Shown here piece after piece: positions 27,838 through 56,950 of a stretch of DNA of 64,000 nt. Both the position numbers and the translations under genes were made by a program. Positions within the stretch are counted from its first letter, which is position 1, and every line of letters starts with the position of its first letter. Source of the DNA: Eledone cirrhosa (taxonomy: Eukaryota); the NCBI GenBank assembly GCA_964016885.1, contig CAXHJY010001202.1:1-64000 (forward strand). Reading direction: 5' to 3'. The notes beneath the pieces are model-generated. The model was not told the DNA's origin. It made no database searches and was given only the letters and a program-made list of their open reading frames with translations.

Positions 27838-27898
27838 TATTTTATCTGATGAGGACGTACTGTTGTAAATAGCTCAGTACCTCTGAAATAATAAAATA
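27838..27898 (+). ncRNA. Type-I hammerhead, long stem II variant, stem III deleted (probably inactive)
   Basis: TATTTTAT-CTGATGA-GGAcGTACTG...CAGTACcTCT-GAAA-TA-ATAAAATA. Confidence 0.7.
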
Positions 27899-29603
27899 TA
27901 CTTGATCACACGAATGTCTATATTTGTTAATATTTTGAATTAATATATATATATATGTTTGTGTGTGTGTGTGTGTGTGTATGGATATGTATGTATATAT
28001 ATGTATGTATGTATATATATGTATCTATATATATATGTATATATATGTATATATATGTATATATATAAATATAAAACTGTTGTGTGTGTGTGTGTGTGTG
28101 TGTGTGTGTGTGTGTGTGTGTGTGTGTGTCCTCATTTTTGCAAAGTCTATACAAATCCACATTCTACTCCGATTGACTTCAAACTTCCATTTATATATTC
28201 CTTGCTTTTAATTTTCAATTTTCTGTTGTTAAAGGAGTGTTAGGCGCCGTTTATCGATCTCTGTCGAGCCCTTATAATATCTGTCTGTATGTCTGGCTGT
28301 ATGCATAACGAGATTCTGACGAACACGTCATTGCTGACGTATTATTTTCGTTTTATACACACACACACATATGTACATGTACATATATATACATATATAT
28401 ATATACATATACACACATATATACACATATACATATATATATATACAAACACATGTACACATATATAGATATACACATATACACATATATAAATATACAC
28501 ATAAAAATATATGTATATATATATACACACACACACACATATATATATACATACACACACACACACACACATATATATATATACATACACACACACACAC
28601 ACATATATATATATATATATATATATATATATATATATATATATATATGTATCTGTGTGTGTATATATATATATATACATTGTAGGTCGCTTTAACCCGT
28701 CTTTTATTATTCAAAAAACTCCTTACCAATAAACATTAACCCTTTGTGCGCCATTCATCTAACTGTAGACCAACAAATACCAAGTAAACGGAGTGTTGAC
28801 AAGAGCGATGGCGAATGAATCTTCGAGGTAAGCAGTTTCCTCCCGAGCTGTTAGTTCACGCAGGATTCTCTGCTACACCTTTTCGTAATAATACCGAACA
28901 ACGTACTGCTGGTCACGCCTTCCTCCAAAAGCCGTACAAAGCATCTCTCTCTCTCTCTCTCTCTCTCTCTATATATATATATATATATATATATATATAT
29001 ATATATATATATATATATATATATATATATATATATATATATAATTTGTTATAAGAACAGATTAAATGTTAAGCAAAGAATCGGTGCTTTCAACATTAAC
29101 GGGATCTTCTGAAACTAAAAAATTTAATCTGTGAACGCAGAAGTAAATATTTCGAGAAACGTTGCAACCGAAGGAAAACAGGAAGACGATATTTTGGTTC
29201 GTGAAGACGTTCCCTGGCAAAGAACGGAAAAAAAGCGAGGATAATACGTCATGTGTTGAGAAGAATAATTTCATGGAAAGACAAGACCAAGTTTATGGTA
29301 TAAATGGACTCGCTAGACTAATATTCTATTTAAAATAACCGAATGATTTCCAGCCCCGGAGTTTAAGAATGATGTAAATAAAATTGAAAACGAAAATGAC
29401 AGAGGTTATTAAAATAGTAAAAGTAAATAGTGAAGATTTAGGCCAGTACATACGTATGCGCCGACGGACATACATATACATACGCACACACAAATACACA
29501 CACACACACACACACACACACACACACACACACACACACACACACACACACACACACACACACACACATACAACCCCACCACCCACCCACCCCACACACA
29601 CAC

Positions 29604-30040
29604 GTGTGTGTGTGTGTAAACCTTATGCATTTCTGCAGTATTTTCACCAAACTTAAGACATAGGTTACTTATGTACTCTGGATGGTCATGGGCACTTTCA
29701 TTTTTCCAGATATTGATTATAGGGCCTCCCGGCAGATAACCCCCTTCAACTGCTTCCTTGGAATCGACTGAAGCACTGCAGTTCAATACAACAAAACGTC
29801 ATAACTTTTGGAGTTCGCAACCGATTTTCACAAAACTTGACACATGGGCTACGTTTGTTCTACAGATGAATGTGAACTCTCAGAATTGGCACATATTGAG
29901 TAGGGGACCCCTGGGGGTACGAACCCCCTTTTGGAAAAAGCCGATGATTTTGTAAAAGTATAGTTTTCGAAGCAGCACTGAAGTATTGACATAAATGGTA
30001 TACATAACTGCTATTTAATACCCGAGCAACGGGTATTAAT
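29604..30040 (+). mobile_element. Probable non-autonomous Helitron
   Basis: Body motifs (CATAACTTTTG...CCGATTTTCACAAAACTTG) and a terminal AATACCCGAGCAACGGGTATT hairpin like that at 16169. No intact CTAG. Confidence 0.55.
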
Positions 30041-30945
30041 ATATACATATAACCTGTTAGTTCCATCGTTACTTTGGTATATTATTGTGTGTTAGATTTT
30101 GCCTACCACAATGTTCGATTTGTCAAGCTATTTAAACGTATGTTATTACTCTAAGGACCTACCTTATCGAGTGCTTTGCTAACTCATCATTTCACATAAG
30201 TAGGCCGAATTTGCTTGCAAACCGCCAGAGATTCGATTTTACTAAATTTCCAATTGTATATATATGTATGTATATATATATATGTATGCATATATAAGTA
30301 TATATATATATGTGTGTGTGTGTGTGTGTGTGTGTGTGTGTGTGTGTGTGTGTGTGTGTGTGTGTGTGTGTGTGTGTGTGTGTGTGTGTAAAACGAAAGA
30401 CAGTCCTCCACAGCCGTTGAGATGGACTTTGACAGTTTCGACCCTTATCATTGGTATTGCTGGTCCACCCGGGGTCACACCGTCTGACACAAATCAAAGC
30501 ACTATCCTATGGAGTAAGAGACGAGACAAATAGACTTATATATACAAGTGTATAGAGATATGTAAAATCCCAACTGCAGCGCCAAGCTGTTTCGGGCTGT
30601 GTGTCCAGCAAGACTTTGAAGGGTGTAGTGATATTTGTAGGGTGTGAACAAGTCACTGTTCTTGGTGGTGCTTTGGTTGAGTTTATCATAGTAATAAACT
30701 GGTCTGATGGAGAAAGTGGGGTGGCGGGGCAGACAGTGGGTGTGGAGGCAGGTAATGTGTCGGGGGAAGGAAGTAGTGTGGGTGGGTGTAATGGCGGTTA
30801 ATGGGTAGGAGTGGTGTAGGAGGAGAAGGGACATGATGGTTATATGAATATGGGGTGTGTAAAAGGTAAACAGAAATAACAACACAATCGGTACAGTATA
30901 TGGAAGGAATATCTTAGGTTAACGCTTGAAATAGCAGGAAGAGAG

Positions 30946-30981
30946 TCTTAACGTTTCGGAGGCTAGTCCTTCATCAGAAGA
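30946..30981 (-). ncRNA. Minimal type-I hammerhead ribozyme (PLE type, palindromic stem III)
   Basis: Minus: UCUU-CUGAUGA-A-GGA-CUAGCC-UCC-GAAAC-GUU-AAGA. Stem I is UCUU/AAGA; the AACGUU palindrome allows a dimeric stem III. Confidence 0.82.
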
Positions 30982-32704
30982 AAGAATAAGAAATAGAAGC
31001 GGTAAAATTCAGTTAGACCATTACTCACCAGAGTACTCGATACTTGGGGTAGTAGAGTCGTTAATAGGATAAATTCGGGATTGTTCGGATCAAGCTGTTG
31101 AAACGGCAGGTGCTCAGCCGTCAGGGGTCCGGAATTTTTCATATATATATATATATATATATATATATATATATATATATATATATATATAAAGTTAGTG
31201 GATGTGTGTGAATGTGTGTATACAGGCGGACGAATAATATTGGAAAGACAAATCTGCTAACTGCCCTTGCAACCTTAATTTACTCTTATGCTACTTACTC
31301 CGTCATTTTCATTTCTCTGGTAGATTTTCTCTGATTTGAATGAATATCTCCACCATTATGTATGCGTGACCTACAGCACCTGAAAGTCTGTATTGTTCAT
31401 AACTAGGGCTTATTGGGTAAACTCTCGGCTTTCTCCGAAATCGTTTATCAAGAGAACATATAACTGCTTTTGTACGTGTATTACATGTAAATAGTTTTAT
31501 AAATAGCTGGATATCATTGACATTGTATATAATAAAGGAAAATCAACATTAATACAAATACCTGACAATGCACGCACACATGGAAACAGATGTATATGCG
31601 AATACAAGCGGGCGAGAGCTCATTTTCTAACAATAGCGGACACTAGCGCTTCACAAAGAGAAATTTGCCACCAGACGAGAAGAAGATAGATGACCTCAAA
31701 CTGACAGTAATGATATATTTCTATAAGACAAACAATTCTGGTTGTGAATTAAGAGGCCACTGTCACAAAAGCTATAAATAACTATAAACTTGATTTATTC
31801 ATAGACATTTCTGAAACAGTGTGAAAATTTATCTAGTAAATGAATGATGATGATGCTGATGATGATGATAATAATAACAATAATAATAATAATAATAATA
31901 ATAATAATAATAATAATAATAATTGAAATACACTAACCAAAAGAACAATACTCAACTGCCTGAAGGCTAATCTATCAATTCACTCGAAATTCGATATCAA
32001 CTGACATAATATATAATGCATTTGTTGAAACGATTTAGAATTTCAAAAGCTTTTGTGTTAGGAACGAATTCCATTCACCAGCCGCTAACTTCACTCCATA
32101 GAATCGTAACGGTGAAGGAAAAAAGAGAAGGCTAATCAACAGCCTATTAAACCTAAATTGAATGTCAAATCCACATTTTTCTAGAAGATCCCATGAAGAC
32201 CCTTACACATATATATATATATATATATATATATATATATATATATATATTTATTTTTGTCTATACCTTTCATTTATATATATATATATATATATATATA
32301 CCTACCTTAATTGTGAATGAATTAAAATAGAAGTTAAAAGATAAATTATGTAAGACCCAAACTATTACGTTGTGGAAATTTTAAATAATTTTGTTGCAAC
32401 AAAAGTTTTCGATACCACTTGATATTCAAGACTTTAAAGATTCAACATACTCATATCAGTGTTTGTTGTTGTTATTGCTGTTAATTAAATCCACAAGTTG
32501 CAGCATTCAGGGTGATTCAAAATCGCTATTTCAACTATAAATCCTCTTCGCTTTGATTTAACTCATTCTTCTCTGTAATCTATTTCCATTGCATGCATAC
32601 AGTGTGATCTCCCATATTTGTACGTTTAATGGCTTCAGAATATAACATATTGAAAAGATAATCCTGTTTCTATAATCTGCTACATAAGTCAAAAATTGTA
32701 TTAA

Positions 32705-55854: not shown

Positions 55855-55957
55855 ATAATTGTTTCTACTTTAGGCACAAGGCCAGCAATTTCCCAGAACA
55901 TTACTGGTACTTTATTTTATCGACCCCGTAAGGATGAAAGGCAAAGTTAACCTCGGG
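55855..55957 (-). mobile_element. Main-family SINE, 3' half
   Basis: Shared tail and core. Confidence 0.85.
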
Positions 55958-56089
55958 TATATATGTTTATGCACACGCACACACGCACACACACACACAC
56001 ACACACACACACACACACACACACACACACACACACACACACACACACACACACAGGCACGCGCACATACAAACACACACGCACACATT

Positions 56090-56265
56090 ATTGAGAGATC
56101 ATAGCTCTGATACTATGAGCATGTGGTTAGAATATCTCAGGAAAGAATCGCTGGACAGATTTTAGGGGCGAAACTGGTAGGAAACCCAGGAGGCCCAAGG
56201 GTGGACCCCCGAGCCAGATGTCGTGGTTAGTCACGCTTGGGGATCCTGCTTCTGACAGGACCCGT
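56090..56265 (+). pseudogene. RTE-clade RT 3' fragment (same family as 40609-41350)
   Basis: YYEHVVRISQERIAGQIL.AK...RP. Confidence 0.65.
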
Positions 56266-56763
56266 TTTGTAAAAATAGCTATACTTGTGCACGTGTGTAA
56301 GCATGTGTGTGTGTGTGTGTTATTAAACGTCTGTACGAAGCTAAGAAGAAATGTGTGTGTATATGTGAATAAAAGAGTGTGTATGCTCATGTAAGTAGGA
56401 AGCTATGAGCAAAAGTATGTTAATGTAAGGGTGTGTATGTGTGTATACAGAGCAGTGAAGGGAAAATGGAGTGAGCATATATAGTCGGCCTGTATTAGTT
56501 GTAAGAGAAGATGTTAATGATCAAGAGAAAGCGATAGGAATCTAGGGTGTGATAATGGACGGGGTATTAAAGAAATTGACGTGAACCTAAACATACAGTG
56601 CTCACCTGGGTGAACCTACAGTAACTTCGTTACACTTCCTGGACAAATATATATATATATATATATATATATATATGCAAAAGTTCTATTTAAATTGTTG
56701 GGATACAACACGCAAATATTTTTATAACTGATATAAAGCACTCAACAAGTATTTGGAGTAAAC

Positions 56764-56950
56764 ATACGATATTAACAAATGGAAACTATATTTATAAAAC
56801 CATATTTATTTTATTATACATATTTCAAGGACACCACGTTAAATTATGGTCTGATGAAAGCATACCATAATTTAACGTGGTGTCCTTGAAATATGTATAA
56901 TAAAATAAATATGATTTTATAAATATAGTTTCCATTTGTTAATATCGTAT
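56764..56950. repeat. 87-bp-arm inverted repeat with a hammerhead core in the 13-nt loop
   Basis: Arms 56764-56850 / 56864-56950 with one mismatch. The plus strand from 56851 reads CTGATGA-AAGcATACCAT...GTGGTGTcCTT-GAAA-TATGTA-TA. Confidence 0.9.

Follow-up and report, generated by a model that had tools for sequence, protein, structure and literature searches.

The hammerhead ribozymes found in Penelope-like elements (PLEs) cut poorly. The variant considered here is a type I hammerhead of PLEs in Eledone cirrhosa that carries a C·C mismatch at the fourth pair of a long stem II. It was noticed in a 64,000-nt stretch of the assembly GCA_964016885.1 (contig CAXHJY010001202.1, positions 1 to 64,000, forward strand; hereafter the window) and followed through the 3.0-Gb assembly, of which the window is contig C1229. 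Sources cited by PMC or bioRxiv number are drawn on in part, and statements about them are confined to those parts.

HAMMERHEADS OF PENELOPE-LIKE ELEMENTS

The nearest described relatives are the hammerheads of Hydra-clade PLEs, elements whose proteins have RWK and DKT motifs, a CxCX5C linker, CxxC and CxH but no CCHH, and which are generally shorter than 3 kb, a tendency that is not diagnostic (PMC8557442). The E. cirrhosa hammerheads share with them the type I form, the location at the 3′ end on the sense strand, the (TA)n targets and the protein motifs, and most of the published rows likewise have no extra base after CUGANGA. A U before GAAA (by eye in about 18 of 26 rows), a U·U first pair and a near-palindromic stem III are also common to both. 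The differences lie in stem III, which starts with A-C and mostly measures 9–10 nt in the Hydra clade whereas here it starts with A-U and is a perfect 8-nt palindrome, in the length of the element (3.7–4.1 kb here) and in pair 4, where C·C is seen by eye in none of the 26 rows of File S2 (PMC8557442). The minimal hammerheads of metazoan PLEs also lie in pseudo long terminal repeats (pLTRs), have a long helix II and a palindromic, unstable helix III, depend on dimers and mostly occur as dispersed single truncated copies (PMC4209133). Two features of their consensus, an unpaired base that follows position 9 and a G10.1-C11.1 pair, are mostly missing in E. cirrhosa, where stem II starts directly. 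The original prediction had taken PLE hammerheads to have usually a short stem II; this was mistaken, as the hammerhead of the S. mansoni PLE has a stem II of 7–8 bp and a long stem II is usual for PLEs (PMC4209133). By eye, none of the 56 examples aligned in Fig. S3 of the same source has C·C at pair 4, and two single examples have another mismatch there (U·U and C·A). Additionally, PLE-associated variants with a reduced stem III that cleave as dimers were described by Lünse, Weinberg and Breaker in 2017 (summarized in PMC6765202).

The Poseidon PLE of Anolis, one reconstituted system, has a hammerhead that cleaves only with its protein; cutting was dispensable for insertion, the unprocessed RNA is the template and two internal start sites of the reverse transcriptase (RT) give an optional tail (PMC11167929). 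It belongs to another clade, its open reading frame (ORF) starts in stem II whereas here it starts about 200 nt downstream, and the part of PMC11167929 drawn on makes no mention of a conserved mismatch. Animal non-LTR retrozymes (PMC7229834; bioRxiv 10.64898/2026.07.22.740005) resemble one family described below (F8) in being tandem units that do not code for protein and that contain a type I hammerhead; their unit is about 300 bp as against 2.9 kb in F8, which keeps PLE tails and inversions. The Rfam family RF00163 (Hammerhead_1, clan CL00010) has the catalytic core and type I topology in common with the variant, but gave no match at the gathering score in six of six loci, and none of the five window motifs stands among the 150 listed of 193 Rfam matches in the window. 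No description of the mismatch was found in the literature searched, a comparison to which the alignments of Lünse 2017 and the bioRxiv supplements are external. The word ‘ribozyme’ is absent from the part drawn on of a 2026 repeat annotation of Octopus vulgaris (PMC13282606), and the word ‘mismatch’ from PMC10085705. The hammerhead of the lineage is apparently, as had been suspected, an undescribed variant of a known ribozyme class, departing from the metazoan PLE consensus at two features and falling below the Rfam threshold in the six loci tested, with a role that we infer.

CONSERVATION OF THE MISMATCH

The mismatch is real and strongly conserved while the neighboring pairs co-vary. This is seen in 26 representatives from outside the window, which come mostly from C-containing searches, are related to each other and include some decayed copies. 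Leaving aside the core, the ends of stem III and the cut triplet, the one invariant base is the cytosine on the 5′ side of pair 4 (C10.4); its partner is C in 22, U in three and A in one decayed copy, so that of the C-C pair once taken to be invariant the 5′ base stands and the partner may be C or U. At pair 4 none of the 26 has matching bases, and the RNAalifold consensus fold keeps this position open of its own accord. Co-variation was found at five of five pairs of stem I, seven of nine pairs of stem II (changes on both sides) and two of four pairs of stem III, with three stems around the core and stem I open as in type I topology; the score was reached by none of 500 shuffles, kinship among the representatives being uncontrolled. 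The first stem II pair is G·U in nine, A-U in eight, G-C in two and unpaired in seven, all 26 have a purine on the 5′ side of pair 5, 17 have U as the seventh base past the cut, and the sense strand of stem II holds 23 G·U cells versus 4 A·C cells. For C10.4 the 10 nt on either side hold no invariant RNA partner base, and stem I has no invariant or co-varying one.

Genome-wide, where the forward and the inverted copy of one insertion are counted separately, C..C before TGAAATA has 59,274 matches (control 118) against 3,811 for C..non-C (control 478), an enrichment that had been predicted. With the full stem III pattern the figures are 110,095 for C at 10.4 (control 45) and 6,262 for non-C (control 284). 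Among the first 100 of the 6,262 non-C matches no non-C family was found; they are scattered single-base mutants of known families, internal false starts and chance matches, and G·C ‘repaired’ versions appear there as scattered single or paired copies only. C..C with the stem III start GAAAC, commoner in PLEs, is not enriched (808 versus 1,593 in the control). The U before GAAA, proposed as a further peculiarity of the lineage, holds in the window, but 20,566 C..C matches in the genome are without it (control 642; mostly C among 100 listed) and it was already common in the published Hydra-clade rows. Family F5 contains both G·U and G-C subfamilies at the first stem II pair; CpG decay as the origin of this U was rejected for F5 because the first 100 of 7,531 matches include T and C forms and lack the CpA form. 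Pair 4 was read in 220 distinct motifs from fetched loci, mostly selected by C-containing patterns, as C·C in 194, C·U in 19 and other states in seven. C·U is the fixed state of family F12 (13 of 13), and the single F13 copy also has it. The F5 stretch was also found in contigs of sequencing runs labelled as four other organisms; two of these contigs span the hammerhead with 2–3 letter differences, none listed at either C (an unlisted position is not proof of identity). Three RNA-type contig sets (X15, X16, X20) and run X8 gave no match, which for the RNA-type sets carries no weight.

Outside the lineage, 46 distinct Hydra-type motifs from 41 of 77 metagenomic loci have pair 4 paired in 39, in the loop in six and as A·A in one, with no C·C, and other Hydra-type families of the same genome are also without the mismatch. 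Since C-G is the commonest state there (11 of 46), comparison of the sequences suggests that the mismatch probably goes back to a C-G pair that lost its G. The motif of loci L041–L044 was considered as a G-C revertant and rejected; it has no proper stem I or III and lies outside the clade.

HAMMERHEADS OF THE WINDOW

The core pattern CTGANGA-N8-38-GAAA has nine matches in the window against 2.1 expected, a number reached by none of 100 shuffles, and they include four of the five motifs first noticed. A covariance model of the 26 representatives scores the five at 54–71 bits and detects no further intact member in the window. The five motifs lie in truncated 3′ ends of families F2, F8, F1, F5 and F1 in coordinate order, and each has C and C at the predicted coordinates, flanked by paired bases on both sides:

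27705..27956, + strand: 3′ end of an F2 element, 5′-truncated, 87–88% to L352 and L354
27838..27898, + strand: F2 hammerhead (motif 27846), C·C 27856/27881, 6 nt of stem III deleted
42263..42860, + strand: 3′ end of an F8 element, F8 being a 2.9-kb non-coding tandem unit
42601..42658, + strand: F8 hammerhead (motif 42605), C·C 42615/42639, first pair U·U
53398-53535: F1 element fragment around the 53441 motif
53441..53498, + strand: F1 hammerhead remnant, C·C 53456/53475, catalytic CUGANGA without 3 nt
54482..54728, + strand: 3′ end of an F5 element, 5′-truncated, 97% to the tandem element L334
54623..54677, + strand: F5 hammerhead, intact, C·C 54638/54657, 71 bits with the lineage's own covariance model
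56661..56976, no strand assigned: F1 insertion, 94–95% to L032, typical PLE inversion
56851..56907, + strand: F1 hammerhead, C·C 56861/56884, core and stems II and III intact

The sole intact hammerhead of the window is 54623-54677; the other four motifs are damaged. It consists of a stem I of 5 bp, the core CUGAAGA, a stem II of 3 bp followed by the C·C and 7 bp, and a stem III formed by the 8-nt palindrome 54664-54671, with the predicted cut after A54672; its minimum free energy fold has stems I and II with a 1x1 loop and leaves stem III open. The surrounding insertion comprises the F5 part (54520-54728) and a short inverted piece (54482-54526), with (TA)n tracts on either side. The F2 motif is predicted to be dead because of the deletion in stem III, and the 53441 remnant because of the deletion in the catalytic core. 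The F8 palindrome differs by one change from the usual F8 sequence. The inversion junction has cost the F1 hammerhead at 56851 the 5′ strand of its stem I; an inverted long-tail 3′ end (56661-56853) there meets a short-tail 3′ end in forward orientation (56849-56976). The original description of five type I hammerheads was right as to the fold and the PLE origin. Its co-variation of the first three stem II pairs agrees with the behavior of the stem in the representatives, except that the 42601 motif opens with the U·U.

CARRIER ELEMENTS

Long copies have, upstream of the motif, a gene for RT (YRDD) with a C-terminal GIY-YIG, and the 3′ end is repeated in them, directly or inverted (pLTR). Direct hammerhead pairs flank the ORF in L039, L334 and L394, which is the pLTR position of PLEs; in L334 the gene for RT and endonuclease (RT-EN) lies between hammerheads 4,097 bp apart, and F2 RT-EN genes lie upstream of the hammerhead in L350-L355, L358, L359 and L361. 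A natural 809-aa ORF in L392 (G000:C1:1137500-1143500), a locus whose hammerhead has C·U, encodes RT with the C-terminal GIY-YIG in a single frame. RWR or RWT (the third residue of RWK varies) and DKT are present in L033, L039 and L392, and the translations of L031, L032, L034 and L392 show the CxCX5C linker, CxxC and CxH but no CCHH. Judged by these motifs, the carriers are elements with Hydra-clade protein features; a Pfam scan gave no RT or EN match in seven of seven protein pieces, so that the motifs are what the assignment rests on. Insertion into (TA)n is visible by inspection at the window copies and fetched loci. The units measure 3,676, 3,940 and 4,097 bp and exceed the length usual in the Hydra clade. 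Naiad was rejected as host element because the endonuclease is C-terminal. AATAAA or a near variant stands by eye 0–25 nt past the cut site in most families, metagenomic Hydra-type elements included, and is possibly a poly(A) signal.

One clade with 96.7/98 support unites the five families whose gene link is verified (F1, F1b, F2, F5, F12); their proteins are 48–70% identical, C·U is nested inside C·C, and the nearest branch outside is a protein named from Argonauta hians. The trees comprise only homologs collected here. From a second tree the unverified ORF links L348, L299, L344 and L357 and the EN-only L088 were dropped, whereas L048 and L345 were retained as ‘unlinked’. Neither a one-protein scan of metagenomes nor a viral contig scan gave a match. 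The F8 hammerheads are 2,905–2,910 bp apart in L472, L475 and L476 and copies are about 97% alike; the tandem unit has no RT match and no ORF was found in the loci examined, yet it keeps PLE tails and inversions, and all 31 copies sampled retain C·C. From these sequence features F8 is likely a young non-autonomous Penelope-like element. Its unit also has internal repeats of about 500 bp. For F14 an ORF was found in 0 of 10 extended loci. A separate young Hydra-type family (L322-L325; G000 C1, C1002, C15, C7) has many long frames (about 844 aa), 5.1-kb tandem units and a hammerhead with a one-sided pyrimidine bulge in stem II.

FOLD, COPY BOUNDARIES AND TEMPLATE STATE

Stem III of the lineage consists of a self-complementary palindrome of 8 nt with an A behind it; the two inner pairs of the palindrome co-vary and 97% of its cells are paired. 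In the monomer its computed pairing probability is at most 0.09 in 26 of 26 representatives. An 8-nt palindrome cannot close a loop, and the model points to a hammerhead acting as a dimer, like other PLE hammerheads (PMC4209133). The mismatch costs stem II a computed mean of 5.3 kcal/mol in the 26 representatives, and pair 3 is formed (P ≥ 0.5) in nine of 26 natural sequences versus 25 of 26 when pair 4 is repaired. In several families stem I seems, by eye, to be extended beyond bulges.

Thirty long copies of F1b, found with a query chosen for copies holding the 5′ untranslated region (UTR) and including the reference locus itself, give 24 starts upstream of the cut site, six downstream and none within 20 nt of it; the cut site as the 5′ boundary of copies was thus rejected. 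The genomic copies run through the cleavage site, which indicates that the templates were uncut. The 3′ ends in four families cluster about +40–60 and +130–200 nt past the cut site, which is the PLE tail pattern, and these two distances resemble the optional tail of the Anolis Poseidon (PMC11167929). Where units stand in tandem, about 200 nt separate the motif from the ORF downstream. A shared motif, (A/G)CTCC ... TTGA(G/A)Y(G/A)CTT, occurs at +55 to +190 past the predicted cut (L039, L334, L394, L476), twice in each of four families, the non-coding F8 included; its first pair co-varies and both preferred 3′ ends lie just 5′ of it. By its sequence and position it is a candidate RT-binding or priming signal.

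POSSIBLE ROLE OF C10.4

The reading that we favor, with a probability of about 0.5, is modelled on the fold and on analogy: a weakened hammerhead in which the element's own protein would use C10.4 as a base-specific handle. A type I hammerhead fold in the terminal repeat of one Hydra-type PLE lineage would cleave only as a pair joined through the 8-base palindrome, the unpaired cytosine would keep the base of stem II loose and the ribozyme attenuated and slow, and the protein, by reading C10.4, would switch it on, while most RNA would stay uncut and be copied whole. Its direct basis is the 3′-end/pLTR site, the co-variation of stems I–III, the invariance of C10.4 across the clade and the read-through of the cleavage site, and its computed basis the lack of a monomeric stem III and the roughly 5 kcal/mol lost in stem II. 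A more specific form, in which a possibly dimeric RT-endonuclease reads C10.4, alone joins two hammerheads and sorts uncut templates from cut messengers, is put forward only tentatively. Several points weigh against the protein-read handle. The choice, relatedness and decay of the 26 representatives inflate both invariance and looseness, and a linked protein is known for five of about 15 families only. When two copies of 54619-54684 are folded together the palindromes pair, but no clean double hammerhead results. Loosening alone leaves a fixed C unexplained, as any mismatch would do, and a protein contact is deduced only from the absence of an RNA partner. Read-through means that cut RNAs are not templates and says nothing on regulated cutting, and in Anolis templates are uncut without the mismatch as well (PMC11167929). 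Finally, the repeated motif near the 3′ ends looks like a better RT-binding site than the hammerhead.

The mismatch might instead make a tertiary contact within the RNA alone, where a narrow pyrimidine·pyrimidine step would allow packing of stem II on stem I, through the backbone, a metal ion or a base triple at the next purine-pyrimidine pair; this packing would take the place of the loop-loop contact of fast hammerheads, and C·C would speed cleavage. Canonical hammerheads have loop II at pair 4–5 (PMC3088659), the 5′ purine of pair 5, the frequent U at the seventh base after the cut and the apparent extension of stem I fit such a contact, and the partner of C10.4 stays a pyrimidine apart from the decayed A. 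This is nevertheless the less likely account, as stem I offers no invariant or co-varying partner base and a faster ribozyme is ill-suited to a weak first pair and uncut templates; the protein-read handle is preferred over it because any mismatch loosens the stem, yet the 5′ side keeps nothing but C, for which no RNA partner is found nearby.

The other accounts are improbable to differing degrees. The fold might be kept as a 5′-UTR element for translation start or ribonucleoprotein assembly, with a host factor reading C10.4 and cleavage secondary, and both the position of the motif upstream of the ORF in tandem units and the cap-independent translation promoted by type I hammerheads of fungal viruses (PMC13725137) speak for it; we consider it unlikely, since F8 has nothing to translate and still keeps C·C in every sampled copy, and since conservation of the catalytic core and the cut triplet is complete. 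Slightly less probable still is a frozen accident, in which one ancestor lost the G partner and the mismatch persisted. The carriers whose protein is known all descend from one ancestor, C-G is frequent at pair 4 of the metagenomic motifs and copies decay neutrally once inserted, but every neighboring pair turned over with compensation, and among the matches read no family has A, G or U as its consensus at 10.4, frequent as single-copy mutants are. Least probable of all is a structure selected on the opposite strand (cDNA or antisense RNA of an inverted copy), where C·C becomes G·G and C·U a purine·purine mismatch; inverted copies are common, but the excess of G·U over A·C cells in stem II and the hammerhead core itself both place the fold on the sense strand.

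If the protein-read handle is correct, the lineage would hold a natural hammerhead with a dedicated protein-recognition base in more than 100,000 copies, missed by Rfam at the loci tested. The protein-gating idea can be tested with a few point variants, for which the lineage offers one conserved non-core base, a natural switch from C·C to C·U, subfamilies with a strong or weak first pair, an intact protein of 809 aa and, in F8, a young passenger family that is non-coding. In either case, a class of more than 100,000 motifs in one animal genome can escape curated hammerhead models.

OTHER FEATURES OF THE WINDOW

Another element's 3′ end (53950-54294) holds a canonical short-stem hammerhead at 54039-54083, with an RF00163 score of 31.7 bits, slightly below threshold. 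The stretch 1244-1338 holds a hammerhead, now decayed, from a Hydra-type family that has no such mismatch, and 24922-25041 a short Hydra-type RT fragment. A near-perfect palindrome of 250 bp with a TA-rich center occupies 27108-27355, where matches to microRNA families are below threshold. Broken frames at 33835-38576 (− strand) have what we take to be Helitron-like Rep-helicase motifs, and 44785-46870 and 61008-63820 (+ strand) are presumably two broken RT genes of non-LTR retrotransposons, R4/Dong-like.

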